Origin: a bacterium | Lineage (GTDB): Bacteria > SZUA-182 > DTGQ01 > JBLIRR01 | Assembly: GCA_049472395.1 (NCBI GenBank) | Contig: JBLIRR010000001.1 | Location: forward strand, 197,940 to 261,939 | Direction of reading: 5' to 3' | Length of the DNA: 64,000 nt | Shown: piece after piece, positions 3-61,279 of the stretch | How positions within the stretch are numbered: position 1 is the stretch's first letter | How the letters are laid out: every line of letters begins with the position of its first letter | Position numbers and translations under genes: made by a program | Notes under the pieces: generated by a model | What the model saw: only the letters and a program-made list of their open reading frames with translations | Told to the model about the DNA's origin: nothing | Databases searched by the model: none

Positions 3-296
3 AAGGAAGCAGTGAATCGAGCCCTCGCCTATTCTTTCCGTGACAGAAAGGTGAGAAAAAGAAATTTCAGGCGATTATGGATTATCCGTATAAACGCTGC
101 TCTTACTACAATGGGATTGAGTTATAGTAAATTTATGGATGGATTAAACAAGGCAGGCATAAAAATCAATCGAAAGATCCTTGCGAATATGGCAATGACA
201 GATCCTTCTGCATTTTCCGAATTGGTGAAGCATGTAAAAGAGATGAGCAGTGCAGGAAAACGTGACACGATAAGAGAACTCGCCAGAATAAAATAG
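3..296 (+). CDS. rplT: 50S ribosomal protein L20, 5' end lies outside the window
   Basis: Translation has the [16 protein letters not shown] and GLSYSKF motifs of L20. There is no stop upstream of the first in-window Met back to position 3. Confidence 0.85.
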
Positions 297-312
297 GTAG
301 AATCTTTGCCTA

Positions 313-342
313 TTGACAGTCGCATTTTAAAGGATGTATTAT
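313..342 (+). promoter_or_regulatory. sigma-70-like promoter candidate (TTGACA-18-TATTAT) upstream of the zapB-like gene
   Basis: TTGACA at 313-318 and TATTAT at about 337-342, read directly from the sequence. Confidence 0.3.
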
Positions 343-472
343 TATCTAAATATAGTATATATCGAGTACCAAGGAAATTAAATAGCCGTCAGGGTTTAAG
401 GGGTATCTCCTGCGCGCCATATGCGCTGTGTGGTCACAATGAAAGTGCTGAAAAATAAGCGAGTCCTATGTA

Positions 473-742
473 ATGCACAACCACGAAAAATTTCATCAAA
501 CCAAGGAAGATCAAACAATTGCACGGCTCACCGTAATAGAGCAAAAAATAGGAAAAATCGTGGAAGAGCTAAGATTGTTGCGACAGGAAAACCACTTCAT
601 GAAAAAAAAATTAGCAGAGAATAGAAAAAATCAAGAAAACTTTTTAAAAATTGAACGAGATAATCATCGCTTAAAAAATGAACATCAACAAATAGCCGAA
701 TATGTAAAAGATATGGGAAATAACCTAAAAGATATATTATAA
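473..742 (+). CDS. small coiled-coil protein, ZapB-like cell-division factor candidate
   Basis: 89-aa highly charged product with heptad-like repeats (IGKIVEELRLLRQEN, LKIERDNHRLKNEHQQ). It sits directly upstream of zapA. The start codon is uncertain. Confidence 0.4.
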   Translation: MHNHEKFHQTKEDQTIARLTVIEQKIGKIVEELRLLRQENHFMKKKLAENRKNQENFLKIERDNHRLKNEHQQIAEYVKDMGNNLKDIL

Positions 743-821
743 AATAAAAAATACCGACGTGAGCATTGATTTTTTTTTAAAAAAATTTATACTATATAAT
801 ATGTTCAAATAGAAGAAAAAA

Positions 822-1109
822 TTGATGAATAGAGCGACTCAATTAACAGAAGTTATAATATTAGATGAAAAATATACTATTAGAAGTGAGGCAAATTCCG
901 AAGAAGTAAAAAGAGTAGCTCATTATTTGGACACCAAGCTTAAGGAGATAAGGCAGAAATTACCAAATATTTCTCTTGTAAAGGCGGTAATTTTAGCTGC
1001 TTTTTATAATATAGAAGAGCTTTTTGAAACTAAAGCTCAACTAAAAGAAACCAAAAAAATAATGGAGGACAAGACAAAAAATATTCTAAAAATGTTAGAA
1101 GATGTATAA
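822..1109 (+). CDS. zapA: cell division protein ZapA
   Basis: 95-aa product of ZapA length and pattern (N-terminal beta region followed by a coiled coil). A 6S-like RNA lies downstream, matching E. coli zapA-ssrS synteny. Confidence 0.65.
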   Translation: MMNRATQLTEVIILDEKYTIRSEANSEEVKRVAHYLDTKLKEIRQKLPNISLVKAVILAAFYNIEELFETKAQLKETKKIMEDKTKNILKMLEDV

Positions 1110-1239: not shown

Positions 1240-1425
1240 TAAGAATCCCTGCCGTGTTCGTGATGGAGAGTTTAGTTTGATCCAACAGTATATTATGAGG
1301 GAGTCTGTGTTTGGGTATAACAAACAGGTCTAGAAAGGTAGAAAGTTTAGACTATCCAGCAGGACACCCACCTGGAAACAGGGTTCAAATATACGCTTCA
1401 CACGGCACAGCGCGGGGAACATTAT
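1240..1425 (+). ncRNA. ssrS: 6S RNA (SsrS) candidate
   Basis: About 185-nt non-coding gap between zapA and rny. The 5' segment CCCTGCCGTGTTCGTGA pairs with the 3' segment TCACACGGCACAGCGCGGGG to form a closing stem. The 3' part contains GGAAACAGGGTTCAAAT, resembling the E. coli 6S 3' region (AAGGGUUCAAGGGUU). Confidence 0.55.
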
Positions 1426-4630: not shown

Positions 4631-6568
4631 ATGGACAATACGAGTGACAAATTTATTGTCCTTGGTACTGCAGGTCATATTGATCATGGAAAAACGACTC
4701 TCATTAAGGCCCTTACCGGTGTTGATTGTGACCGACTAAAGGAAGAAAAAAGAAGGGGAATCACCATTGAACTCGGATTCACTTCCTTACGCCTTCAAAA
4801 TCACCTTCACATTGGCATAATTGATGTGCCTGGCCATGAAAAATTTATTCATCATATGGTTGCGGGTGTAGGAGGAATAGATTGTGTATTGCTTGTTATT
4901 GCGGCCGATGAAGGTGTAATGCCTCAAACAAAAGAACATTTGGATATCTGTGAATTACTCGGAATCAAAAAAGGAATCATTGCCCTGACAAAAATTGATC
5001 TTGTCTCCGACGAATGGCTTGAATTAGTTATAGATGATATCCGTTCTTCTACGCAAAAAAGCTTTCTTGCCAATGTCCCAATTATTCCGGTCAGTTCACA
5101 AACAAAACAGGGATTGGATACATTAATCCAAACCATTACTCAATTAGCCGAGCACATAATACCTAAAAGAGATGATGGTAATTTTCGTCTCCCTATCGAC
5201 AGGGTATTTACCATGAAGGGTTTTGGCACGGTAGTCACAGGGACGGTTTTAAATGGAAGAGCAGAAGTCGGGGAGGCATTAGAAATCTTGCCTCAAAAAA
5301 TACCTGTTAAAATAAGAGGATTACATGTTTTTAATAAAAAAACCGACCGTATAGTATCAGGACAGCGCGCAGCGATTAATTTACAAGGAATTGAGAAAAA
5401 TAAAATCGAACGGGGTAATGTAGTCGCCCTAGCCCATACGCTCAAAGCTTCTTATATTCTCAATACCCATATCTCATTAGTCCCTCACAGCCCCCCTCTA
5501 AAAAATCGAACAAGGATTAGATTTCATTCCGGAACGAATGAGATTTTAGGCAGAATCATTTTATTAGATAGAGAAAAGCTTAAGGGTGGGGAGGCTGCGT
5601 ATGTGCAAATTAGATTGGAAAAAAAAATAGCAGTCCTTCCTTTTGATAACTTCGTCATTCGCACCTATTCACCTATCATCCTTGCAGGCGGAGGGCATAT
5701 CGTAGAAAATATTGCAACAAAAAGCAAAGGGACGAAGCTAAAATCTCTGATAAACGATTTAATCCTTCTCGATGAGGGTTCAAATGAGGAAAAAATCGAA
5801 TACTATATCAAAAAAAGCGGGGAAGAATGCATTGATCTTAAGAATCTTATTATGAGGAGCAATAATACTCAACGGGAACTTATTGAAATCCTTAATCAAT
5901 TATTGCTTAAAAAACGAATTATCAGCATAGATCCTCTTGCCTATAAAGTTGTCCATACGAGCATATACGAAAAATTATGTAATAGCCTCACAGCCTTTCT
6001 TACTTATTATCACCAACAATTTCCTTTAAGTGCGGGAGTCTCCAGAAAAGAGTTAAAAGAGAAACTTTCCCCGAGCGTGGATTCAAAATTATACACTATG
6101 ATTATAGAGAATCTCCAAAAAAATAATCGAATCACTGTGGAAAAAGAACTGATTAAGTTACAAGGGTATAAAATTTCTCTGTCAGCCAAAGAGGAATCCC
6201 TCTATCAAGCTATCTTAAAGATATATAAAGATATGAGTATCCATCCCCCAAAACTTGAAGAGATCTGCTCTCAAATGAAGATTGCTCGACATGAAGCGGA
6301 AAAGCTTATTCAGCTATTAATAGACAGGGGAGAGGTAATCCGTATAAATGAAGATTTTTTATTTCATCATGCGGCTATAACTTCTATAAAGCATAAACTC
6401 TTCTCTTTTTTTAAGCACACAAAAGATATTAATATAAGCAAATTTAAAGACCTCATTGGAATATCCCGAAAATATGCCATCCCTCTTCTTGAGTTCTTTG
6501 ACACTGAAGGGATCACCTTACGAATCGGTGATAAACGGATCCCTAGGAATCTAAACGGGTGGGAATAA
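4631..6568 (+). CDS. selB: selenocysteine-specific translation elongation factor SelB
   Basis: GTPase motifs GTAGHIDHGKTTL, DVPGHEKF and TKID. The 645-aa length includes C-terminal winged-helix extensions typical of SelB. Confidence 0.85.
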   Translation: MDNTSDKFIVLGTAGHIDHGKTTLIKALTGVDCDRLKEEKRRGITIELGFTSLRLQNHLHIGIIDVPGHEKFIHHMVAGVGGIDCVLLVIAADEGVMPQTKEHLDICELLGIKKGIIALTKIDLVSDEWLELVIDDIRSSTQKSFLANVPIIPVSSQTKQGLDTLIQTITQLAEHIIPKRDDGNFRLPIDRVFTMKGFGTVVTGTVLNGRAEVGEALEILPQKIPVKIRGLHVFNKKTDRIVSGQRAAINLQGIEKNKIERGNVVALAHTLKASYILNTHISLVPHSPPLKNRTRIRFHSGTNEILGRIILLDREKLKGGEAAYVQIRLEKKIAVLPFDNFVIRTYSPIILAGGGHIVENIATKSKGTKLKSLINDLILLDEGSNEEKIEYYIKKSGEECIDLKNLIMRSNNTQRELIEILNQLLLKKRIISIDPLAYKVVHTSIYEKLCNSLTAFLTYYHQQFPLSAGVSRKELKEKLSPSVDSKLYTMIIENLQKNNRITVEKELIKLQGYKISLSAKEESLYQAILKIYKDMSIHPPKLEEICSQMKIARHEAEKLIQLLIDRGEVIRINEDFLFHHAAITSIKHKLFSFFKHTKDINISKFKDLIGISRKYAIPLLEFFDTEGITLRIGDKRIPRNLNGWE

Positions 6569-9624: not shown

Positions 9625-10791
9625 TTAGTGAGAATCACAGCTTTCTTCATATGCCCATTCTAACCACGCAAGAGCAGCGAGCAAGTCTTCGCTGTCAACG
9701 GTCGGTCCGGCCCAAAACCGAAATCCCGGAGGAGCGTCCCTATAGGAATTTATATCATACGCAACCTGTTCCGCATCCAAAGTGCTGGCTATTTTTTTGC
9801 AAAAAGCGGTCTGGGCTCCGGTATCCATTGCGGTAAACCATGGTGCGACAATCTTAAGACATACAGAGGTATTGCTACGAATAGTTTTCTCCTCGGCTAA
9901 AAATTCGATCCAATCCCGGGATGCTACCCAGGATTCAATGGTAGCAAGATTTGTCATACTCTTTTTAATAAGTGCCTGCACACCTTGTGCACCATTAAAT
10001 TCAAAAGAAAGCCCCCACTCAAGCGCATCGATATATTCCTGGACACAAATCATTGAAGGTGTATTGATTGTCTCGCCTTCAAATATACCCTTATTAAGCG
10101 CGCCTTTTTTCTTTAATCGAAAAATTTTAGGCAACGGCCATGAAGGATCATAATTTTCTATTCTTTCAACTGCTCTGGGCGAAAGAATTAATATGCCAAA
10201 TCCTGCTTCACCTCCGAGAACCTTTTGCCATGAATAGGTTATGGCATCAAGTTTTTCCCACGCAATCTCCATCCCAAAAACCGCGCTCGTCGCATCACAC
10301 AGAACAAGACCTTGACGATTATCCGGAATGAATTCTCCACTCGGCACCTTAACCCCGCTTGTCGTCCCATTCCAGGTGAACACAATGTCATTACTCCAGT
10401 CAATAGAGGAAAAATCGGGTATGTGGCCATACTCAGACTTCAAAACAGTGGCATTAAGCTTTAATTCTTTATTTACATCCGTCGCCCATCCTGCTCCAAA
10501 ACTTTCCCATACAAGAACTATCACCGCCCTCTCACCGAGCAGACTCCACAGAGCACACTCAAAAGCACCGGTATCACTTGCCGGCATTATGCCTACCATA
10601 TAGTCATCAGGAATTTCAGCTAATTTTCTGCTTAAATCTATCGCCTTTTTTAAAGAGGCTTTCCCTTCTTTTGAGCGGTGCGATCTTCCAATTAAAGAAT
10701 CTGCCAGTATCGTACTATTCCAACCAGCCCTTTTAGCAGTCGGACCAGAGCTAAAAAAAGCTCTCACAGGTTTTATTGAAGGTTTCTTCAT
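9625..10791 (-). CDS. serC: phosphoserine aminotransferase, class-V aminotransferase of the actinobacterial SerC type
   Basis: Pattern FSSGPT, IPDDYMVGIMPASDTGAFE, FTWNGTTSGV, CDATSAVF and NTPSM matches the SerC-like fold. Confidence 0.6.
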   Translation of the reverse strand: MKKPSIKPVRAFFSSGPTAKRAGWNSTILADSLIGRSHRSKEGKASLKKAIDLSRKLAEIPDDYMVGIMPASDTGAFECALWSLLGERAVIVLVWESFGAGWATDVNKELKLNATVLKSEYGHIPDFSSIDWSNDIVFTWNGTTSGVKVPSGEFIPDNRQGLVLCDATSAVFGMEIAWEKLDAITYSWQKVLGGEAGFGILILSPRAVERIENYDPSWPLPKIFRLKKKGALNKGIFEGETINTPSMICVQEYIDALEWGLSFEFNGAQGVQALIKKSMTNLATIESWVASRDWIEFLAEEKTIRSNTSVCLKIVAPWFTAMDTGAQTAFCKKIASTLDAEQVAYDINSYRDAPPGFRFWAGPTVDSEDLLAALAWLEWAYEESCDSH

Positions 10792-26583: not shown

Positions 26584-26844
26584 ATGATTGAAGTTACAGT
26601 GTGCGTTGGCAGTTCATGCCATGTAAAAGGTTCTCGTGATTTGATTAAGTTGTTTAATAATCTTATTAGCGAATATAAACTTGAAGAGAAAGTGGCACTG
26701 AGGGGGTCCTTCTGTCTTGAACATTGCGCAGAGGGTTTTAATTGGAAAATCGGTGAAGAAATCATAAGCTGCAAGAATATCAAGGAGGCGGAAAAAATCT
26801 TTCGGGAAAAAATCATAGAACCTCTCATGGGAAAAGAAGAATGA
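26584..26844 (+). CDS. thioredoxin-like [2Fe-2S] ferredoxin (small hydrogenase-associated type)
   Basis: 86 aa with CxxxxSxC...C...C spacing (CVGSSCHVKG...CLEHC) as in NuoE/HndA-type 2Fe-2S folds. Confidence 0.55.
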   Translation: MIEVTVCVGSSCHVKGSRDLIKLFNNLISEYKLEEKVALRGSFCLEHCAEGFNWKIGEEIISCKNIKEAEKIFREKIIEPLMGKEE

Positions 26845-28511
26845 CCTTGCTCACTATCTCCCATCCTGACTGCAAAGATAAAGATTATTATAAGTGTTTA
26901 CGTTCGTGCCCTCTAAAAGCCATAAAAATTAGCAAGGGCACAATGGAAATAGTGGAAGAGCGTTGTATTGCTGAAGGACTCTGTATTAATATCTGCCCTC
27001 AAGGCGCCATCCATGCCATTGGTGAACTGCATAAGGTAAAAAAATATCTGGATTCCGGTATCCGAGTTATCGCTAGTTTGTCACCGACCACTTTACTCAC
27101 TTTTAGTGATGCTCAAAGGTTCGAGGATGCCCTTAAAACCCTCGGTTTTTCGGAAGTAGTATATATGCAGGATGCCGCGGCTTCACTGGTTTTGGAATAT
27201 GGTCAATTATTATCCAAGGTAAGAAAGCCCCTCATTTCCTCCCATTGTCCGGCTATTTGTGAGCTTGTGGAAAGATTTGTCCCAAATGCCTTGAATTATC
27301 TTGCGCCCATTATTGACCCTGCAGTTGCTCATGCTCGTATTATCAAAGCACAACAAGGAGAGGACAGCCGCGTTGTTTACATAGGGCCCTGTCTTTCTCA
27401 GAGAACCAGAGAAGGAGATGCCCTGGATGCCGTATTAACATTGAATGAAATGGATAACTGGTTTAAGGAAACTGATATTCAGATCCCCATTATGACCTCT
27501 CAGGATATACTACCAGCAGAGTCCTTTGCAGGACTTCTTTCTGTTTCCGGAGGTCTGTTGTCACTCTTGGAGCTTAAAGAGGCAGCAGCTGGAGGAAACA
27601 GTATTTGTATTTCAGGAATGGAAGAGTGTTTGAAATTTCTGAAAAATTTGCCTCCTCCTGAAATGGGCTTTGAATTTGCAGAGCTTATGGCGTGCCATGG
27701 CGGGTGTATCGGCGGCCCTTTTCTTCGAACGAAATTTGATATAGTGAGTAGGAAATTTTTATTATCTCGTAATAAGCCTTCTCGTATCCCCGCACCAGTA
27801 TCACAGGTGAACCTTACGAGAAAACCTCAAGCCAGGCCCTTTGTAGCCCCAAAGACTAATCCGGAAGAAATAGATTATGTTCTGCGCCACTATACGAGCC
27901 ACCTTGATTGCGGAATGTGTGGTTATGAAACGTGCTTTCAGAAGGCAAAAGCAGTATGCGAAGGAATGGCTGACGTTGAGATATGTATGCCAATGATTCG
28001 AACGCAAGGACAAGAGACGCTCTCAATTTTGGAGTATACACCTAACGGAGTCATCCTCATTGACACGGATACTCGGATACGCTTTGCCAATCCATCATTT
28101 TTAAAAATGTTTAAATGTGAACGAAAAGATATACTCGGTGAGCCAATAGCCAACTTCATCCACTCCCATTGTTTTGAAGAGGCTATAAACAATAATATAA
28201 GCTCTCTTTTTAAAAGAACAATTCCTAAACTGGGCATTAGCTACCGCGCGTGTATTTTCCCAATAAAAGGAGCCTCTCTTTACTGCGGGATCATAAACGA
28301 TATATCGGAAGAAGAAAATGCGAGGCGAGAATTCGACAAAGTCAAGGATGAGACCTTAAACAGGGCTCAAGAGGTTATTGGACGTCAAATGAAAACAGCA
28401 CAGGAGATTGCCGGGCTACTAGGGGAGACAACTGCTGAAACGAAAGTTTTACTTGTAAAACTAATGAACCTCTTTAATGAGGAGGAATCTCCAGGTGAAG
28501 CTCTTTTATGA
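26841..28511 (+). CDS. [FeFe]-hydrogenase-like sensory protein with PAS domain (HydS/HfsB-like, group C)
   Basis: N-terminal ferredoxin-like Cys motifs. H-cluster-like motifs SSHCPAICE (L1), IGPCLSQRTRE (L2) and ELMACHGGCIGGPF (L3). An extra CGMCGYETC...C cluster and a C-terminal PAS-like region follow. The start overlaps the previous stop (ATGA). Confidence 0.7.
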   Translation: MTLLTISHPDCKDKDYYKCLRSCPLKAIKISKGTMEIVEERCIAEGLCINICPQGAIHAIGELHKVKKYLDSGIRVIASLSPTTLLTFSDAQRFEDALKTLGFSEVVYMQDAAASLVLEYGQLLSKVRKPLISSHCPAICELVERFVPNALNYLAPIIDPAVAHARIIKAQQGEDSRVVYIGPCLSQRTREGDALDAVLTLNEMDNWFKETDIQIPIMTSQDILPAESFAGLLSVSGGLLSLLELKEAAAGGNSICISGMEECLKFLKNLPPPEMGFEFAELMACHGGCIGGPFLRTKFDIVSRKFLLSRNKPSRIPAPVSQVNLTRKPQARPFVAPKTNPEEIDYVLRHYTSHLDCGMCGYETCFQKAKAVCEGMADVEICMPMIRTQGQETLSILEYTPNGVILIDTDTRIRFANPSFLKMFKCERKDILGEPIANFIHSHCFEEAINNNISSLFKRTIPKLGISYRACIFPIKGASLYCGIINDISEEENARREFDKVKDETLNRAQEVIGRQMKTAQEIAGLLGETTAETKVLLVKLMNLFNEEESPGEALL

Positions 28512-52500: not shown

Positions 52501-52556
52501 ATAAAAAATGACAAAGGGGAACAAGAAAAGCACATTCTTATTCTTATTCCCCTTTC
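52501..52556 (-). terminator. intrinsic terminator candidate downstream of the Gly/Tyr-rich protein gene
   Basis: Minus-strand GAAAGGGGAA-loop-TTCCCCTTTG followed by TCATTTTTTAT. Confidence 0.45.
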
Positions 52557-52616: not shown

Positions 52617-53516
52617 TTAAAGAACGCCTGTTGCGGTCGTAATTGGTGCGGTCGTAACTGGTGCGACAGGGGTAGTATCAACAACAGGTGCTGTTACTGG
52701 ACTTGTTGTTCCCAATCCAAGGAGGGAATACCATGGACTCATCATTCCCATTCCATACATTCCACCCATACCATAAAGGCCACCATAGCCATACATATTA
52801 CCGTAGCCACCAAATGGTGAGGTGAGCGTTGAGGTATCCAGCGTACCCCACCACGGATAGTGGCTACCAAACATGCCGCCCATACCATAGGGAGAGGTAA
52901 GAGACGTAGTATCTAGGCCGCTCGGAGTATACCAGCGTCCAAACATGCCACCCATCCCGTAGGGATTGGTGAGAGTTGTCGTGTCTACTGTACCCGTGCT
53001 GGTAGGCGAATACCATCTTCCGAACATACCGCCCATACCGTAGGGAGAGGTAAGAGTTGTCGTGTCTACTGTACCCGTGCCGGTAGGCGAATACCATCTT
53101 CCGAACATACCGCCCATCCCATAGAGGGAGCTAAGAGTCGTGGTGTCTATTGTGCTTGTATCAGTAGGCGCATACAACCGGCCAAACATACCACCCATGC
53201 CATAGGGGTAACTGAGGCTTGTTGTATCTAAACTACCTGGATAATATCCGCCAAACATCCCTCCCATACCGAAAAGGCCTGCACCATAACCGCCATAGCC
53301 ACCATAGCCACCGTAACCACCGTAACCGCCAAGGCCACCCGTAAATGGTCTATAACCATACATTCCAGTATTTTGCACTCCATACCCCCCCATTAGTCCT
53401 AGTCCATACATATTGCCTGAAAAGAATTGGGCTTGGCTCTTAGGAGCAGATACAATTACAAATGAAATGATAAGCAGCACTGAAAATAAAATTTTAAAAT
53501 ACTCTCTCTTTAACAT
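52617..53516 (-). CDS. secreted Gly/Tyr/Met-rich repetitive protein (signal peptide, GYGGYGGYGG block, about six 27-aa repeats DTTTLTSPYGMGGMFGRWYSPT.TGTV, and a Thr/Pro/Val-rich tail)
   Basis: Signal peptide ending SQA. Shine-Dalgarno GAAGGAAGG. Strong periodicity at both the protein and nucleotide level. The alternative-frame ORF 52864..53097 is a shadow of the repeats. Confidence 0.6.
   Translation of the reverse strand: MLKREYFKILFSVLLIISFVIVSAPKSQAQFFSGNMYGLGLMGGYGVQNTGMYGYRPFTGGLGGYGGYGGYGGYGGYGAGLFGMGGMFGGYYPGSLDTTSLSYPYGMGGMFGRLYAPTDTSTIDTTTLSSLYGMGGMFGRWYSPTGTGTVDTTTLTSPYGMGGMFGRWYSPTSTGTVDTTTLTNPYGMGGMFGRWYTPSGLDTTSLTSPYGMGGMFGSHYPWWGTLDTSTLTSPFGGYGNMYGYGGLYGMGGMYGMGMMSPWYSLLGLGTTSPVTAPVVDTTPVAPVTTAPITTATGVL
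52975..53136. repeat. two near-identical 81-bp tandem copies inside the Gly/Tyr-rich gene, flanked by more degenerate copies (about 52800-53235)
   Basis: Copy 1 at 52975-53055 and copy 2 at 53056-53136 differ at only a few positions. Confidence 0.8.
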
Positions 53517-53796
53517 AACTCACTATCCTTCCTTCTAAACTTCTTACTTATTTTCTTAAAATTACATAAAACTATGCTGAAAATAAATTCAGACTGTGAA
53601 AAACCTTTCTTAATCCATCACCTCTCTTTGCTTGTTTTCTATGGTTAATATTTTCTTAATTTAGTATATCATTTTAATAGACACTCTCTTTATTATATTT
53701 CTTTCATTCTATATTTCAACTCGCACACTTAAGTTCCGGTAATTCTGATTTTGGAGGGATATCACGCAGTTCGTGGGCTCTGATTATATAACCATC

Positions 53797-53842
53797 AAAA
53801 CTAAAATTGCTGCATCATGAAAAATATTTTTGACGCAGCATT
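53797..53842 (-). terminator. intrinsic terminator candidate downstream of the 993-aa protein gene
   Basis: Minus-strand AATGCTGCGTCA-AAAATATTTTT-CATGATGCAGCAATT extended palindrome followed by TTTAGTTTTGATGG. Confidence 0.45.
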
Positions 53843-53851
53843 GGGTATTAT

Positions 53852-56833
53852 TTACAATGTGAGCCCAAAGTAAATACTATAGGATGGATAATCCTCACTA
53901 TTCTCTATTTTTCCTAGCGGGATAGCACCTTTTAAATATACATGACTTAACCGATTCGGCCAATAATAGAAGGAATATCGTAGTGATCCTTCAGCAGATA
54001 TAAGCGTATCTTGGATATCATCATAATGTTTTAAATCACCAACCTCTATCTTAACTCCCGCGCTCATCCTTTCAAACCAGGAAACTTTATTACATACTGA
54101 AATAAAGGGATTAAACCGTAATTCCGCATACGCTCGAAATAATTGCCGCGCATATATGCTCCCATATGAATACCCGCTGAACATCTCTTCATGGCCTAAA
54201 ATTTCATACATAAATAGAGGTCCTTTGTGTGAGCGTATCTTTGTGAAATAAGAGAATCCATCCGTACCAAATCGCAGTGACATCCTCCTGTCAAAGAACA
54301 CTGCATTTTTCCCTAGGCCAAAATGTATTTTGGGCACACTACATGGCTTATAAAGAAACATGCTTTCTTTATATGACGAAAAACCAGGATATCTATTATT
54401 ATAAAGATCGATACCTGCATTGGCTTTAAAACTTGGTTGACCAAGTGTTCCAGGATCGAATGTGCTTCGCCCTGTATAGTGGAGCCAATCAAAACTCCAA
54501 TGATCACATTTATAGATAATACCATCATTCCTGCTCAGAATGCCGGTACCCGATTCACTATAGACCAGGGTGGGATCTGTGAGGGTATATTTGCTTTTTC
54601 GTGTGCGCCATTCATAACTATATGCAGCAGTAAGAATATCATCTTGGCAAAGATTGTATTGTGCACTTGTCTTCAGCTCCGTACTGTCATACATTTCAGC
54701 AATATACATCTCTATACTATCATTATACATATACACAATTTCATTAAAAAATTTTTGTAAAGAAACCTCTTCTTTTACAGAAAATTTCCAGATATCACAT
54801 TCACCCCACACTGTAGCAGACGGATAGATTTCCGGCACTGTTTTATACCCGAATAATCTGTTTATATTCAGGTTAAGCCCAGATTTAAAATTCCCGGGTG
54901 CATTATCCAAAAAAAATGTTCCGCCGAGAATCAGCTGGTTTTTGCTGTCAACGATTTCATCAGTAAAAGGTCGATATCTTATTTTATTAAAGCCTATAAA
55001 ATATTGGGGCATTGACACCATATTCGATTCGACCTCTCTGCTTTGAGGAGTATCAGCCAAAGCAGCTGTAACTTTCGATCTGGCCTCAACGGGCTTTATC
55101 CTGTCGGAAATAATAATGGGGCGCTCTTTTGAAAAAGGATTATTAAGTTTATATATGGTAAAACAGCCATCCTCATATACTGAACATGTCACAGTGCTCA
55201 TATTATTCTTATTGTCAATGCATGGATATCGCACCCCACCTCCCACATCAGTTATTTTATACCAGGTATTCTCATCTTCCTTCATATTGCACCAGTAAAG
55301 CTGTGGAGTTCCATCGAGAGTACTGACAAATAGAAGTCGGTCTGATCCAGCATATATACAATCAATAATATACGCATCTAAATTCTCCCAGAGGATATCG
55401 AATGAATCCTCTTTTAAAATGCCTGCTTTTACTTTACCCTCAGTTCCAATTGATATTACTGCTGATTGTGGTGTAATTTGTGAGATTTTATACACTCCCT
55501 GGCCATAATCAAATATCTTTAAGGTTTGAGGCGAAGATTTATTGGGATCCTGTAACACAATTTTGGTTTTCCCATTATTATATGACGCATACATAAGGTG
55601 ATTGTCATACACATCAAAGGCTATGCATCGTTTATCAGTTGTTGCCCGCTCAGGCTCGCCATCTTTATTTAATTTGAAAATATCATATCTTACACCACTT
55701 GAGAGTCTGCTGTTAACCCGTTTATTAAACCAAATTGTATTGGTAACAGAATCTTGCGTAAGGACCATGCCAACATCCTCTATTACCTTCTTAATATTCT
55801 TTTTATCCTCAGACATAATCATAAGATCATACCTGTTGTAATCATGCCTCCAATTGGCAATGGTATACATGCCTTCATCAACCGTGGCGACTTCAAAATT
55901 CATGAGCCGCTTTTTTCTCTCAAACAGAGGACTCCCATCTATCAGGTGATCCTTTTGGGGGTATTTGATCTTTAAGGTTTCTCTCCAATCTTCATATATC
56001 TGCTCAATAGTCTTGCCATAATGGGAAATAATCGCCTTCTCAAATCGCTCTTTTCGAATGAGACGACAAAGATCCTTAATGGATTTTTGAGGATAGTTAT
56101 GTACAAGGTAGAGCAGCAAATCAAAACCTTGATTATAGGCAAGCTCGGATTCTCTGGAACTTCCTTCAAAGCGTGCCATTTCATCAATGGTGAGAAGCCT
56201 GTTATGATAAAATGAATCCCTTAACAGCATTTCTCTAAAAGGATCCCGATACTCCGCCTTAAATTCATATGAACCCAATTGTGCGATACCTTCCACAAAC
56301 CATATAGGTAGCGCATTATGCTGATACTCGACAATCGACATCACGTTTTCTCCCTTAGGTTCAGAATAGTTTAACAGGCTGAGAGCAACAAGCATTGAGG
56401 ATTGTAATACTCGAAGAGAATAAATATGGGATAATTCATGAGACACAATTGTCCTGAGCCATTCATTTTCCCCGCGCATAAACATATCCGCTTTCCGGCA
56501 CTCTATGACCACGAGAGAATTATATCTATTTGCGCTTCCATTTATATAATCATTATTATTTTTTATAACGATCGCTATTTTTTTTTCATTAATATCATAT
56601 CCAAAATAATCCGCGAGCGTGTGGGCTGTCTCTTCAGCAATATCTAGGGTCATAAGGGCCAAATCTTTGTTTTTCTCCTTATATGAAATTTTAAAATGGT
56701 CGCTCTCAAGATGCTCCCATGTATTGAAAAGTTTACTACTTGCGACATTCGGTATAAGTGAGCATAGTATCATCCACCACACTATTCTCATTTTGAATGA
56801 TCTTTTTAAGGTAGCAGGCATATTTTTACTCAT
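53852..56833 (-). CDS. large secreted or outer-membrane protein with an N-terminal HExxH region, a beta-propeller-like (TolB/WD40-like) middle and a beta-barrel-like C-terminus (hypothetical)
   Basis: Signal-like N-terminus (RIVWWMILCSLIPNVASS), HELSHIY motif, repeated beta-strand-rich segments and a C-terminus rich in alternating aromatic residues (YSIYFGLTL). Confidence 0.55.
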   Translation of the reverse strand: MSKNMPATLKRSFKMRIVWWMILCSLIPNVASSKLFNTWEHLESDHFKISYKEKNKDLALMTLDIAEETAHTLADYFGYDINEKKIAIVIKNNNDYINGSANRYNSLVVIECRKADMFMRGENEWLRTIVSHELSHIYSLRVLQSSMLVALSLLNYSEPKGENVMSIVEYQHNALPIWFVEGIAQLGSYEFKAEYRDPFREMLLRDSFYHNRLLTIDEMARFEGSSRESELAYNQGFDLLLYLVHNYPQKSIKDLCRLIRKERFEKAIISHYGKTIEQIYEDWRETLKIKYPQKDHLIDGSPLFERKKRLMNFEVATVDEGMYTIANWRHDYNRYDLMIMSEDKKNIKKVIEDVGMVLTQDSVTNTIWFNKRVNSRLSSGVRYDIFKLNKDGEPERATTDKRCIAFDVYDNHLMYASYNNGKTKIVLQDPNKSSPQTLKIFDYGQGVYKISQITPQSAVISIGTEGKVKAGILKEDSFDILWENLDAYIIDCIYAGSDRLLFVSTLDGTPQLYWCNMKEDENTWYKITDVGGGVRYPCIDNKNNMSTVTCSVYEDGCFTIYKLNNPFSKERPIIISDRIKPVEARSKVTAALADTPQSREVESNMVSMPQYFIGFNKIRYRPFTDEIVDSKNQLILGGTFFLDNAPGNFKSGLNLNINRLFGYKTVPEIYPSATVWGECDIWKFSVKEEVSLQKFFNEIVYMYNDSIEMYIAEMYDSTELKTSAQYNLCQDDILTAAYSYEWRTRKSKYTLTDPTLVYSESGTGILSRNDGIIYKCDHWSFDWLHYTGRSTFDPGTLGQPSFKANAGIDLYNNRYPGFSSYKESMFLYKPCSVPKIHFGLGKNAVFFDRRMSLRFGTDGFSYFTKIRSHKGPLFMYEILGHEEMFSGYSYGSIYARQLFRAYAELRFNPFISVCNKVSWFERMSAGVKIEVGDLKHYDDIQDTLISAEGSLRYSFYYWPNRLSHVYLKGAIPLGKIENSEDYPSYSIYFGLTL

Positions 56834-56895
56834 TTTCCTTTTAGATGTTACTATTGGGCTAGATAATAATTATGTGCCATCAGATAATTTAGAAT

Positions 56896-56911
56896 TGCAA
56901 CAACTATACCA
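56896..56911 (-). promoter_or_regulatory. sigma-54 (-24/-12) promoter candidate upstream of the 993-aa protein gene
   Basis: Minus-strand TGGTATAGTTGTTGCA matches TGG-N8-TTGCA (consensus TGGCAC-N5-TTGCA) about 63 nt upstream of the start codon. Confidence 0.45.
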
Positions 56912-57032
56912 TTAATAATATTCTTAGATGCTTTATTTCATTGAGATCAGGGGGCTTCACTCACACCTCATCAGAAATAAGCACTCAGATTGAACATCCT
57001 GCGCTCTTTAGTGATCAAAAGATGAGCTTCTA

Positions 57033-57093
57033 TAAAATAAAAAAAGGTATCAGCCTTACTTAGGGAATGAGAACCCTAAGTAAGCATGATACC
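57033..57093 (-). terminator. strong intrinsic terminator candidate downstream of EF-hand paralog A
   Basis: Minus-strand GGTATCATGCTTACTTAGGG-TTCTCATT-CCCTAAGTAAGGCTGATACC (about 18/20 bp stem) followed by TTTTTTTTATTTTAT. Confidence 0.55.
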
Positions 57094-57119
57094 CTTAATT
57101 TATCAGAGATTTTAACTCT

Positions 57120-58445
57120 CTATAGACTATTAATAAAACACGTATTGTTCTCTGGACCAGATTGTGTCTGAACAGGTTCTATCTGCATTGTATCGGCTGC
57201 ATTGCCTGCTGATGCAGCTTCATTACTACTGTTGCTCTCAAATACAAACTGGTATACGAGGGAATGAGCTCCATCACCCACTGCATCAACCTCAGCGACA
57301 TACACTACTCCATTTGTCCAATCATCAGCATCAGGATCTGCTTTTTGCATATTAATCTTTTCACCCGGATCATCAAAATCAGCTTCGTTCCATGTAATTA
57401 TCCCATCATTATTAAGATCTACAGAGTCATAATTTAAGTCTACCCATAGCTGTGATACTGCCGGTGGTGCATTCGCCTGATCATCAACCGGATACACATA
57501 TCGAACCCTGAAGATGAAATGATTATCTCCCTCATTTATCAACGTAGGATACACAGCTTCCAATTTAAAATCTGCAAATTCACCAGCAGAATTCTCTGCA
57601 CCGTTTAACGCTGACAAATCCAGGGTTTCTCCAGTAAAACTGAGGCTCCCGGTAATCTCAGGATCAGCACCAATATATTGAATATCTAATTGTGGCCTTA
57701 AATTTTTATCATCAACATCTGAGGTATAGTATTCTATATACTCGTCTCCGTCAAAGCTCACTTCCTCTGCTGTTCTTGAACTTATCAGGGTTATTTTGGT
57801 GAATTCCCCAGGTTTAATGATATCATAAGGTCTTACTATTTCAATCACATTTGCCTGACCAACCTCAAACTCACCGGAGCTTATTGCACCATGTTCGGAT
57901 CCGGTAATCGCACCCCATTCAATATTCCAGAGGGGCTCCTCCCAATCCGATTCATAGATCCCGATATTGAATTGACCATCATTATCAATATTCTTTTCTT
58001 TTCCATAAAGAGTCAAGCTGGCAGATGTGACGATCGCATCATAAGGAAGAGATGTGGTATCAAAACTCATATATCCCTTAAAGATGGAAAATGAACCATC
58101 ATAGATCTGCCCTACTTTGGCTGTTTCTGCTGCAACTGTGGTGGTAAAGGTATTACCCTTACTTGAACCACTAACATCAGGCACGCCATCTATTGCTCCA
58201 CGTGCACCTTTTTTACTGCCGCCACTTCCAGCAAACGCCCTGTTCCCACCACCATAAGCACCTGAGCCCTTTATATTTTTATCTCCTGTAGAAAAAGTTC
58301 CAAGTGCAGTACTTTTTGATTTCATTTCCCCTGAGGAAGTGGTTGGACCAAGTGTTATAGATGCTGCATCAGTTATATTTGGCATAATAAAGAACATGCC
58401 TACCATTAAACTTATAATAGCAAAAATACATAAATATCTCTTCAT
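57120..58445 (-). CDS. secreted hypothetical protein with a canonical EF-hand Ca-binding loop (paralog A)
   Basis: Signal peptide MKRYLCIFAIISLMVGMFFIMPNITDA. Gly/Ser-rich N-terminal region. DLNNDGIITWNE fits the 12-residue EF-hand loop. About 60 percent identical to the next gene. Confidence 0.6.
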   Translation of the reverse strand: MKRYLCIFAIISLMVGMFFIMPNITDAASITLGPTTSSGEMKSKSTALGTFSTGDKNIKGSGAYGGGNRAFAGSGGSKKGARGAIDGVPDVSGSSKGNTFTTTVAAETAKVGQIYDGSFSIFKGYMSFDTTSLPYDAIVTSASLTLYGKEKNIDNDGQFNIGIYESDWEEPLWNIEWGAITGSEHGAISSGEFEVGQANVIEIVRPYDIIKPGEFTKITLISSRTAEEVSFDGDEYIEYYTSDVDDKNLRPQLDIQYIGADPEITGSLSFTGETLDLSALNGAENSAGEFADFKLEAVYPTLINEGDNHFIFRVRYVYPVDDQANAPPAVSQLWVDLNYDSVDLNNDGIITWNEADFDDPGEKINMQKADPDADDWTNGVVYVAEVDAVGDGAHSLVYQFVFESNSSNEAASAGNAADTMQIEPVQTQSGPENNTCFINSL

Positions 58446-58725
58446 GAGCCTATTTATACCTCCCTTTGCATCATGGCTTACATCAATAATAAACCTTTAA
58501 TTAAATTAACTTCTTCTCTCAAACATCCGTACTGATATATTGTGAGCATCTTCTTACATAGTGTCTAAATGCTATTCTTTAACCTCTTCCCCATCGCTCT
58601 TCTTGAATAGTGCTTGTTATATATTCTTGATTATCATACCCCCTTCTCTTTAATTTATTGTTTATGATGCGAGACAATCCTGTCTCTTAATTCCCCCCGT
58701 GTGTACTTTGCTTATTTATATATCA

Positions 58726-58741
58726 TGCAAATATCATTCCT
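58726..58741 (-). promoter_or_regulatory. sigma-54 (-24/-12) promoter candidate upstream of paralog A
   Basis: Minus-strand AGGAATGATATTTGCA (AGG-N8-TTGCA), about 282 nt upstream of the start, implying a roughly 270-nt leader. Confidence 0.4.
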
Positions 58742-58800
58742 CTATCCATTTAATGTTTATCTGTTAAGAATAAAGAGTCTGTGACTGAACATATTCTCCT

Positions 58801-60180
58801 CTATTGATTTAAAGTATAATTTTTAGACATCTGTTCATATACACTATTAATAAAACATGTACTACCCTTAGAACCGGCATTTGCTTGAACCGGCGCTATC
58901 TGCATAATTTCAGCAGCATTTCCTACTAACGCGCGCGCTTTAGTGGCGCTGCTATCTTCAAATACAAATTGAAACACCAAAGGATGCACTCCGTCACCCA
59001 CCACTTCAACCTCGGCTTGATAAATTACTCCGTTTGTCCAATCATCAGAATCAGGGTCGGTTTTATACATGTCAATTTTCTCACCACTATCATCGAAATC
59101 AGCTTCATTCGAGTCTATATTGCCATCAGAATTCTCATCCATAGAATCATAATTTAAATCTACCCATACCTGGGAAAGACTTGGGGGCGCATCAGAAAAA
59201 TTATCGAATGGATAAATATATCGCACCCGAAATATTACATGATTATCTCCTTTATTTATGAGAGTAGGATACGCTGCCTCCAATTTAAAATCCGCCATCT
59301 CATCATCTCCAAATTCTTCCGTCTTAGTGAGATCTGCCAATTCTATTGTCTCTCCCGTAAAACTAAGGCTTGGCGCAATAGAAGGATCATCGCCAATCCA
59401 CACAACATCTAACTGCGGACGTAGAGTGGGATTTGCTGCATCTGAGGTATAATACACGATATATTCATCTCCGTTGATGTTCTGGGACTCTTCAACTGTT
59501 CTTGAGCTCACCAAGGTTATTTTGGTAATTTCTCGAGGTTTGATAATATCAAAGGGTCTTGTGATAGTAATCTCATTGGGTTGACCATCAACCTTAAATT
59601 CACTGACACTTATTTGCCCGTGTTCAGATCCGCTTATGGCTCCCCATTCAATATTCCAGAGGGGTTCCTCCCAATTCGATTCATAGACACCGATTCCAAA
59701 TTCAATTTCATTATCATTATGCTTTTCTTTTCCATATATAATCAAGGTCGCTGAGGTAATAATGGCATTGTAAGGAATAGAGGTAGTGTCAAAACTCATA
59801 TAACCCTTGAAGATCGAATACGATCCGTCATACGTTTGACCTACTTTTGCCGTATCTGCTGACACTGTGGTGGTAAAAACATTACCCTTACTGGTACCAT
59901 TTGCACTAATGTCGGGCACACCATCAAGTGCGCCACGCGCTCCGTATTTACTCCCCCCAAAACCTGAATAGGCCCTGCTTCCCCCTCCATAGGCATAACT
60001 GCCTTTTATTTCCTTATTCCCCGTGGAAAAACTCCCTAATAATGAACTTCGTGATTCCATGTACCCAGAGCTTGCGGATGACCTGATTCCCTTAAGAGAC
60101 GCTGCATATATTGTTTGTGGAGTATAAAGGAGTAGTCCTCCTATAACACCTATGAGAGTAAAAATACATAGATATTTCAT
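58801..60180 (-). CDS. secreted hypothetical protein with a canonical EF-hand Ca-binding loop (paralog B)
   Basis: The likely start is ATG at 60178-60180 (MKYLCIFTLIGVIGG...) preceded by GAAGGGGAG; the track ORF begins at a TTG at 60201. DENSDGNIDSNE fits the EF-hand loop. It shares high nucleotide identity with paralog A over long stretches. Confidence 0.6.
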   Translation of the reverse strand: MKYLCIFTLIGVIGGLLLYTPQTIYAASLKGIRSSASSGYMESRSSLLGSFSTGNKEIKGSYAYGGGSRAYSGFGGSKYGARGALDGVPDISANGTSKGNVFTTTVSADTAKVGQTYDGSYSIFKGYMSFDTTSIPYNAIITSATLIIYGKEKHNDNEIEFGIGVYESNWEEPLWNIEWGAISGSEHGQISVSEFKVDGQPNEITITRPFDIIKPREITKITLVSSRTVEESQNINGDEYIVYYTSDAANPTLRPQLDVVWIGDDPSIAPSLSFTGETIELADLTKTEEFGDDEMADFKLEAAYPTLINKGDNHVIFRVRYIYPFDNFSDAPPSLSQVWVDLNYDSMDENSDGNIDSNEADFDDSGEKIDMYKTDPDSDDWTNGVIYQAEVEVVGDGVHPLVFQFVFEDSSATKARALVGNAAEIMQIAPVQANAGSKGSTCFINSVYEQMSKNYTLNQ

Positions 60181-60319
60181 ATAATTTTGTCTCCCCTTCA
60201 AGATATTTATGTGATTAAATACATAGTAGGCTTACTGTATACTCTTATAAATGAATAAAACTCCTCCTTTTTTTATGGATTATTTCCAATTTTCCATGGC
60301 CCGTTTTGATATTAATTAC

Positions 60320-60335
60320 TGCAAATATCATTCCA
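60320..60335 (-). promoter_or_regulatory. sigma-54 (-24/-12) promoter candidate upstream of paralog B
   Basis: Minus-strand TGGAATGATATTTGCA (TGG-N8-TTGCA), about 140 nt upstream of the ATG. The 14 nt GGAATGATATTTGC are identical to the paralog A site. Confidence 0.5.
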
Positions 60336-60481
60336 TATTCTTATCCCCCTCATTTTCTTAGGTTTCTCTGGGAGAATGCTGATGGAGTGATTAATAATTT
60401 TTATAAACTTATAGTGAGCAGTTTAATTTTTACACAAATAGTATTATAATAATTCACGCGAGAATATGACTGAAACCCTGA

Positions 60482-61279
60482 ATGGATATATTTGAAATGC
60501 AGGTACGTTCAATAAAATATAGAATTTTTATTTTTCTCTTCCTCTGTCTTTTTCCGGGCAGAGGCTTTAGTGCGGCACAAACCGCCCAACAATCACTCAC
60601 GGACTACAACCTATGGAATTTATATGGAGGAGCCAGCGATGTATACCTTACGCTCAAAGATGGATCACATAAAAAAACAAAGGTACCCTTAAAGGAATAT
60701 GGCTTTTTATTGGAATTTGAGGATAAATATGACAAATGGAAGGTTGATTTTTCATTTTTCCAATGGAACGATAGTCAACTGCAAGGGGAAGATTTCTCAG
60801 TAAAGCTGAACTATCTTCCATTTAAAACCAAAAAAGGGGGGATCTTTACCCGGCTTAATCCCTATATAGGAGGCTCCCTTAATTACCATTACAACAAAAT
60901 AAATCTTCCTGACGCTAATCCGGAGCCCACTGGTTGGGTTAATCCTTATCAGCAGGCTATAAAAGGATATGGCGCAGGATTGCAGACGGGGATGAAGATT
61001 AAGGATATCCCTTTTAAAGGCACTATATGGCACACAGAACTTGGCGGCATAGTCTATACGTATAAATCCTCCTTACTGGAAGAAGAATTTCTGTCTGGCA
61101 TCTCTTTTACCCTAGATACGCATTTTAAAAAAAGATTTTATTATATTTTCCTTGGATTAGGGTATCAATTGAGACAATCAGATTTTGATGGTACTTATTT
61201 AAGCGATCAAGATAAATATTATCCGAGCTCTCAATTTACCCATCATCTTTTTTATATTAATCTTTCTTATCCGTTTTAG
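60482..61279 (+). CDS. putative outer-membrane beta-barrel protein (hypothetical)
   Basis: N-terminal signal (FIFLFLCLFPGRGFSAAQT), alternating hydrophobic beta-strand patterning and a C-terminal ...YINLSYPF ending in Phe. An alternative start lies at 60497. Confidence 0.45.
   Translation: MDIFEMQVRSIKYRIFIFLFLCLFPGRGFSAAQTAQQSLTDYNLWNLYGGASDVYLTLKDGSHKKTKVPLKEYGFLLEFEDKYDKWKVDFSFFQWNDSQLQGEDFSVKLNYLPFKTKKGGIFTRLNPYIGGSLNYHYNKINLPDANPEPTGWVNPYQQAIKGYGAGLQTGMKIKDIPFKGTIWHTELGGIVYTYKSSLLEEEFLSGISFTLDTHFKKRFYYIFLGLGYQLRQSDFDGTYLSDQDKYYPSSQFTHHLFYINLSYPF

Follow-up and report, generated by a model that had tools for sequence, protein, structure and literature searches.

Five adjacent genes for envelope proteins in an uncultivated anaerobe: a peptidase–propeller–barrel protein, DNRLRE paralogs and sigma-54-type promoter motifs

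We have analysed a block of five neighbouring genes in a 64-kb stretch of bacterial DNA (contig JBLIRR010000001.1; hereafter the window), which an earlier note had put forward as a candidate sigma-54-controlled surface island. The block codes for a repeat-rich Gly/Tyr protein (GY299), a protein that joins a zinc peptidase, a β-propeller and a β-barrel (MA993), two DNRLRE paralogs (par441 and par466) and a putative small outer-membrane protein (OMP265). Our results point, with moderate confidence, to a lineage-specific cluster of five independently transcribed envelope genes rather than to a conserved multi-component machine, and within this cluster three genes are probably co-regulated through sigma-54, as judged from their promoter motifs.

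The five genes and their products

The five open reading frames (ORFs) that the earlier note had read at 52617–61279 all exist (Table 1). It had also found the products to be without assigned function, and the sources do name them either 'hypothetical' or, in the case of one orthologue (NCBI entry P0041), 'DNRLRE domain-containing protein'. The mechanically called ORF of par466 covers 58801–60201(−) and gives 466 amino acids (aa) from a TTG codon, and the ATG at 60180 is likely to be the true start because the 100%-identical NCBI product P0040 has 459 aa. The protein database holds 100%-identical entries from the source metagenome-assembled genome (MAG) for par441, par466 and OMP265 (ACMUJM_01010, _01015 and _01020); for MA993 no such entry was returned, and the best match was 73% identical. 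Signal peptides had been claimed for all five proteins, and each N-terminus does carry 2–5 Lys or Arg residues ahead of a hydrophobic core of 12 residues (mean Kyte-Doolittle 2.1–3.1), as judged by inspection of the N-terminal sequence and not by a dedicated predictor, so export of all five products is plausible.

The description of MA993 as a giant protein with an HExxH motif, a propeller and a barrel is borne out. Pfam detects PF13485 in it (32.7 bits, cut-off 32.4) together with DUF5050, and among 35 family members Peptidase_MA_2 is matched by 30, PD40 by six and DUF5050 by three. The residues of the zinc site, H132, E133, H136 and E181 (the last within WFVEGIAQ), are invariant in the 35 homologues. 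By these residues MA993 is an MA-clan (gluzincin) zinc peptidase with predicted activity, in which a Glu downstream of HExxH is the third zinc ligand. Propeller and barrel are both seen in a confident AlphaFold2 (AF2) model (predicted local distance difference test, pLDDT, 87.6; predicted template-modelling score, pTM, 0.85), where DSSP assigns 16 long strands to residues 605–992, and the family profile matches TolB chains in the PDB (E = 0.007). When the model was compared with the PDB by Foldseek, the best 15 matches were nearly all BamA, FhaC, Sam50, Toc75, CdiB and TamA, the Omp85-barrel matches having a probability of 1.0 and E values of 5e-7 to 1e-5. On this model, the barrel is the C-terminal 16-stranded transmembrane β-barrel by which Omp85 proteins are recognized.

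The sequence of the barrel has diverged from that of the known members. None of the 35 family members has a POTRA domain (PF07244) or matches the Pfam Omp85 (PF01103) or ShlB models at E <= 1, and the family profile, run against all PDB sequences, found TolB only and none of the solved Omp85 chains. In Omp85 proteins the lid-lock is formed by (L/M/V)RG(Y/W/F) in extracellular loop 6 (ECL6) and by FxDxG in strand 13 (PMC11358297). MA993 bears in a loop of 30 residues that joins strands 11 and 12 a conserved G-x-E-x-x-F-S-G-Y (F in 30/35 members, S in 28/35, R in 2/35, G in 33/35 and Y in 30/35) and in strand 13 a K-x-E-x-G (E in 31/35, G in 32/35). The places of both motifs and their Gly and aromatic residues fit the lid-lock, with Arg replaced by Ser when F-S-G-Y is set against the ECL6 consensus and Asp by Glu when K-x-E-x-G is set against that of β13. 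The family has 39 detectable members, three of them close (64–73% identity) and the rest at 40% identity or below; the named sources are Ca. Magnetomorum and MAGs of Delongbacteria, Fibrobacterota and Spirochaetes, and a scan of GTDB genomes adds relatives in Desulfobacterales, Treponemataceae and Spirochaetia.

MA993 does not represent an entirely new kind of protein. Omp85 proteins with N-terminal domains other than POTRA were catalogued in 2014 (PMC4104836). Three POTRA-less subfamilies, noNterm, WD40-like and Metallo, were listed there as exceptions, and the WD40-like one has TolB and aminopeptidase template matches (Table S3 of Heinz & Lithgow 2014, PMC4104836), its function being uncharacterised; we found no experimental follow-up of it in the literature searched. 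As in MA993, an N-terminal MA-clan or aminopeptidase-like region is followed by a TolB-like propeller and a 16-strand barrel, and because this three-part architecture is common to both we regard MA993 as a diverged variant of this subfamily, the comparison being one of architecture and not of direct sequence homology. Unlike the family of MA993, the published WD40-like members match PF01103. Two other systems bear some likeness. PlpD (type Vd secretion; PMC11116518) similarly has an N-terminal enzyme fused to a 16-strand Omp85-type barrel in one polypeptide, but its enzyme is a patatin lipase and it carries POTRA, whereas MA993 has a zinc peptidase and a propeller and no POTRA. BepA (PMC13655028) offers a functional analogy, being a periplasm-facing HExxH metalloprotease that acts at an Omp85 barrel in envelope quality control; it is a separate soluble M48 and TPR protein, while MA993 is a covalent fusion with a Peptidase_MA_2 domain, and a weak M48 match appears in 1/35 members of its family.

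The paralogs par441 and par466 are 65% identical. Both match the NCBIfam model NF033679 (DNRLRE) over ~155 residues, par466 with 36.7 bits and par441 with 33.6 bits, the latter 0.4 bits under the curated cut-off of 34, and hundreds of profile matches align to this part of the proteins. The DNRLRE domain is also classed as CBM96, a family of which one alginate-lyase module has been shown to bind alginate (PMC9971899). Beyond this domain the paralogs have, as features specific to their small family, an N-terminal Gly-rich segment, a C-terminal module, a calcium-loop insertion and an invariant Cys-Phe motif; the C-terminal domain of par441 is β-rich. They had been called EF-hand paralogs, and of this the paralogy stands, as does one canonical 12-residue EF-hand-type loop in each (residues 343–354 of par441 and 355–366 of par466; pattern D-x-[DNS]-x-[DNS]-G-x-[ILV]-x3-[DE]), but the EF-hand label does not, because it is DNRLRE/CBM96 that defines the proteins. 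Neither of them contains a second EF-hand loop or a Pfam EF-hand match, matches to EF-hand proteins and lanmodulin in the PDB are non-significant (E ~0.8–1), and the loop is a 14-residue insertion of this clade that is absent in six more distant family members.

A word-indexed search found 8 members of the paralog family and an exhaustive profile search ~7 full-length representative clusters; the latter gave 466 matches, most of which cover only the DNRLRE part or only the C-terminal module. This module occurs in up to 26 copies in giant extracellular proteins of up to 6,784 aa. Its assignment to GEVED was considered and rejected, since Pfam GEVED matches do occur in the giant proteins that share the module, but at other positions. 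The only Cys of the mature protein lies, in every family member and down to 29% identity, in a C-terminal CF[IM][SN][ST] that follows a Ser/Asp-rich linker; this tail covers residues 431–441 of par441 (C436, F437) and 444–454 of par466, and no transmembrane segment comes after it. To our knowledge, it is unlike the known C-terminal sorting signals. A narrower form of the improbable export-pathway idea discussed below would be that linker and tail together form an undescribed sorting or covalent-attachment signal.

GY299 is the repeat-rich Gly/Tyr protein it had been taken for. It contains five strict copies of DTTxLxxxYGMGGMFG spaced ~27 aa apart and seven GMGGM cores, the ~27-residue unit reading DTTxLTSPYGMGGMFGRWY, together with a GYGGYGGYG tract and a Thr/Pro/Val-rich tail; at the DNA level there is an 81-nt tandem repeat of 3.4 copies. 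In the mature protein, which is devoid of K, E and C, G makes up 24.8% of the residues, T 15.6%, Y 10.4% and M 7.8%. The repeat core is nearly unchanged in the orthologues from two related loci (L001 and L002, described below), which argues for selection on the repeat itself. No Pfam or NCBIfam model matches GY299, and the literature on GY repeat strings yielded only structural Gly/Tyr proteins of eukaryotes. A metagenome scan with a GY299 alignment returned 131 YGMGGMF stretches, none of them confirmed by tblastn; low-complexity sequence had probably been masked, as even the JGI orthologue in L001, which one would expect to recover, did not turn up.

OMP265 is a putative small outer-membrane barrel protein, as suggested by its signal peptide and by a C-terminus, FYINLSYPF, that resembles the β-signal of outer-membrane proteins. 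It had no Pfam, family or PDB match, even with a profile, and its family has 4 members among 5.8 billion clusters.

Promoter motifs and transcription units

A search of the whole window on both strands (128 kb) with the sigma-54 pattern GGNAY-N5-TTGCW gave 6 matches where 2.6 are expected, and three of the six lie in the intergenic DNA of the block, on the coding strand, upstream of MA993, par441 and par466. GG-N10-GC elements are kept at the orthologous positions of all three genes in L001 and L002 (six elements). The MA993 element reads GGTATATATGTTGCA in L002 and GGAATATTTTATGCA in L001 and the par466 element GGAATGATATTTGCA in L002 and GGAACAATATTTGCA in L001, while in the par441 spacer no other block of the alignment with both loci is as well conserved as the element. 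The RpoN-type promoters previously ascribed to three genes were thus found again and are conserved, and par466, par441 and MA993 are probably RpoN-dependent to judge from these motifs.

The paralog family has such an element in nearly all of the lineages covered. A sigma-54-type element stands upstream of the paralog homologue in 6 of 9 distant loci, with a near-consensus TGGCAG-N5-TTGCA in L071 and L078 (TGGCAGTAATTTTGCA) and in L075 and L077 (TGGCAGCGATTTTGCA) and weaker versions in L069 and L070. Most of the distant MA993 homologues have no GG-N10-GC element within 450 nt upstream; a good one is seen only in L006, where the element (TGGCCGATCGATTGCA, positions 9899–9914 of that locus) lies ~100 nt upstream of a solitary MA993 homologue of 40% identity.

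No sigma-54-type element is present upstream of GY299 or OMP265, for which there are sigma-70-like promoter candidates only; that of GY299 is a consensus match, and such sites are not commoner in the region than in shuffled sequences. Hairpins with U-runs or U-rich tracts follow GY299, MA993 and par441, and the strong one after par441, which has a similar counterpart in L001 and L002, divides this gene from the MA993 unit. Since the genes have promoters of their own, hairpin terminators and intergenic gaps of 280–360 bp, they are best described as separate transcription units, and all five appear monocistronic from the arrangement of these signals. Sigma-54 control, for which the earlier note had put forward the whole block as a candidate, is probable for the three genes with sigma-54-type elements and is not supported for GY299 and OMP265.

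The par441 transcript would have a 5΄ leader of ~270 nt (58446–58725, (−)) between the sigma-54-type element and the start codon, with purine-rich blocks (GGGGGGAATT..GAGACA..TGTCTC) that are common to L002. Rfam gave no real match in the long 5΄ leaders, and none at E <= 1 in that of par441. An Rfam match to mir-1252, an animal microRNA, at 57037–57103 (38.4 bits, gathering score 70) was discarded as a false positive; it is the terminator hairpin of par441.

Table 1. Features of the five-gene block and domains of MA993 (window positions unless residues are given)
Feature	Position	Strand	Description	Basis
GY299	52617-53516	(-)	299 aa, secreted Gly/Thr/Tyr/Met-rich repeat protein	ORF call
MA993	53852-56833	(-)	993 aa, peptidase + propeller + barrel	ORF call
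par441	57120-58445	(-)	441 aa, secreted DNRLRE/CBM96-type protein	ORF call
par466	58801-60180	(-)	tandem paralog of par441; 459 aa from ATG at 60180
OMP265	60482-61279	(+)	265 aa, divergent from par466; putative small outer-membrane protein
MA993 signal peptide	N-terminus			inspection
MA993 zinc peptidase	residues ~40-290		Peptidase_MA_2-type	Pfam, AF2
MA993 β-propeller	residues ~300-575		TolB-like	AF2, family profile
MA993 linker	~25 aa between propeller and barrel			low confidence in AF2 model
MA993 barrel	residues ~600-993		16-strand, Omp85-like	AF2, DSSP
Sigma-54-type -24/-12 element	56896-56910	(-)	GGTATAGTTGTTGCA; ~60 nt upstream of MA993 start codon
Sigma-54-type element	58726-58740	(-)	GGAATGATATTTGCA; upstream of par441
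Sigma-54-type element	60320-60334	(-)	GGAATGATATTTGCA; upstream of par466
Sigma-70-like candidate	53692-53719	(-)	TTGAAA-16-TATAAT; upstream of GY299	11/12 consensus matches
Terminator-like hairpin + U-run	52505-52556	(-)	after GY299	-22.7 kcal/mol, z = -5.4, 0/200 shuffles as stable
Weaker hairpin + U-rich tract	53808-53840	(-)	after MA993	-14.8 kcal/mol, z = -2.2
Strong intrinsic-terminator hairpin + U7	57037-57103	(-)	after par441	-33.8 kcal/mol, z = -7.2

Distribution of the genes and genomic setting

Synteny was examined by a tblastn search with the four partner proteins in 68 loci that hold relatives of MA993; ~15 of these relatives have full length and were viewed or screened directly. 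Partner genes were found in two of the 68, L001 and L002, whose MA993 orthologues are 70–73% identical to that of the window, and were absent in the other 66. In L001 the whole neighbourhood is kept. In L002 the five genes stand in order, with a two-component system in place of fmt/def as the left flank, and the contig ends directly after the GY299 orthologue. Orthologues of OMP265 adjoin the block in both. Elsewhere, in Ca. Magnetomorum, Desulfobacterales, Fibrobacterota, Spirochaetia and other MAGs, the MA993 homologues are solitary genes among unrelated neighbours, and clustering of these neighbours revealed no recurrent partner except generic two-component proteins. Similarly, nine loci with paralog homologues (29–41% identity) lack genes for MA993, GY299 and OMP265, and the solitary paralog-family genes adjoin accA, hypA and similar genes; a candidate conserved small ORF downstream of the distant paralog homologues proved to be hypA-like housekeeping. 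Conservation of the five genes as a unit, which the proposed island would need, thus fails outside the immediate clade, partners being missing from 66/68 MA993 loci and 9/9 paralog loci.

The housekeeping flanks described for the block were confirmed (Pfam labels from the syntenic genes in L001). One flank consists of two Band_7/SPFH genes together with a CooC/CdhD block of the acetyl-CoA pathway, the other of fmt/def. The remainder of the window is likewise housekeeping (RNase Y, SelB, AlaRS, FTHFS, ACS/CODH, 6S RNA), GC content shows only a slight dip across the five genes, and there is no sign of a mobile element. The block belongs to the core chromosome of an uncultivated anaerobe with acetyl-CoA-pathway genes.

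Three further features of the window were recorded. A 6S/SsrS RNA gene at 1243–1422(+) (74.3 bits, gathering score 46.4) is its sole Rfam family above threshold. At 26841–28511(+), upstream of NuoF-like and Fe-S proteins, a [FeFe]-hydrogenase large-subunit domain is fused to PAS domains in a protein that resembles a sensory hydrogenase. The gene of the selenocysteine-specific elongation factor SelB lies at 4631–6568(+), and the organism therefore uses selenoproteins.

Interpretation of the block

We propose that the block is the lineage-specific cluster named at the outset. One or more enhancer-binding proteins encoded elsewhere would switch on par466, par441 and MA993 together. MA993 would have a divergent POTRA-less 'WD40-like Omp85' architecture, with the barrel as outer-membrane anchor and with peptidase and propeller most likely facing the periplasm, as do the N-terminal domains of other Omp85 proteins, where they would process or degrade envelope proteins. 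Its most likely role is that of an outer-membrane-tethered protease, orientation and substrates being inferred, and it would act alone, because its homologues elsewhere are solitary genes. The paralogs would be Sec-exported proteins whose DNRLRE/CBM96-type β-sandwich probably binds polysaccharide and whose C-terminal module would here have acquired a calcium-binding loop. GY299, with its marked repeats, would be a structural or matrix-like protein whose gene probably has a sigma-70-type promoter, and OMP265 a small outer-membrane protein. The adjacency of the five genes would then come from shared ancestry in one clade, perhaps with shared regulation, and not from an obligatory physical partnership.

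Several points weigh against this proposal. L002 keeps the block despite the change of its left flank, which lends slight support to the idea that the five genes move as a unit, and a promoter type common to three of the five genes fits a dedicated system as well. Exported soluble proteins of diderm bacteria need a route across the outer membrane, for which MA993 is the only nearby candidate, and it is an analogy that places the MA993 peptidase in the periplasm. No signatures of rpoN or of bacterial enhancer-binding proteins (bEBPs), namely GAFTGA, the RpoN-box or the bEBP Walker motif, were found in any frame of the window, and no shared k-mer or inverted repeat was found upstream of the three sigma-54 elements. 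The argument for sigma-54 control is accordingly made by the motifs and their conservation, since no regulator gene or shared activator site was found in the window. Finally, the single-sequence AF2 model of par441 is of low confidence (pLDDT 31.8).

We consider it rather unlikely that the block is a chance neighbourhood, that is, that unrelated envelope genes happen to be adjacent in a young clade, the MA993 motif being fortuitous and only the paralogs being RpoN-dependent. Common descent alone does predict synteny at 45–73% protein identity, the five apparently monocistronic genes would be expected, and so would the rarity of the promoter element among the distant MA993 homologues, of which most have none and only that in L006 has a good one. 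However, the MA993 element occupies the same position in three genomes within an otherwise diverged AT-rich spacer, ~1.3 kb of intergenic DNA hold three correctly oriented matches against the 2.6 expected in both strands of the entire window, and the order of the block in L002 has withstood the change of flank.

A dedicated secretion or assembly system is less probable still, and we regard it as doubtful. Here MA993 would be a translocator of the Omp85 type that carries its own processing protease and exports and/or trims both paralogs and GY299, which would build a calcium- and polysaccharide-linked matrix at the surface; OMP265 would be an accessory outer-membrane component. The best structural matches of MA993 include the dedicated translocators FhaC and CdiB, the five genes are together in three genomes, one of them with a changed flank, MA993 and both paralogs have the same sigma-54 promoter type, and the invariant Cys-Phe motif of the paralogs could be a recognition or attachment signal. 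A related known arrangement is two-partner secretion (TpsB/TpsA, type Vb), in which, as in the block, the gene for an Omp85-fold barrel stands beside genes for exported proteins and to whose barrels, FhaC and CdiB, MA993 is matched in fold. However, TpsB has two POTRA domains and TpsA a two-partner secretion (TPS) domain, whereas neither POTRA nor a haemagglutination-activity/TPS domain was matched in any of the five block proteins, MA993 and its candidate cargo included, and the partners in the block are not co-conserved. Outside the immediate clade the MA993 and paralog families each occur without the other at every locus, GY299 and OMP265 lack the sigma-54 element, and the Arg of the Omp85 lid-lock is Ser in 28/35 MA993 members. 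The boldest form of this idea, a new POTRA-less Omp85 export and processing pathway in which peptidase and propeller recognize the Cys-Phe motif of a sigma-54-controlled family of DNRLRE proteins and which builds, with GY299, a calcium- and polysaccharide-linked surface layer, is the least probable of all. Beyond adjacency, a single functional system is not supported, and the surface assembly that had been envisaged finds weak support in adjacency within one clade and in the common promoter type.

What does a lineage-specific cluster of this kind mean? Neither the observation on MA993 nor that on the DNRLRE family overturns anything, and because the organism is uncultivated they serve in practice as a starting point for structural and heterologous studies. 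MA993 is a well-modelled divergent branch of the peptidase–propeller–barrel type, in which the zinc site is intact and the lid-lock altered, and the promoter type that it has in common with neighbouring secreted proteins in one clade gives a concrete hypothesis on when MA993 would be expressed. The small DNRLRE family illustrates clearly, in several lineages, secreted proteins whose genes have near-consensus sigma-54 promoters.

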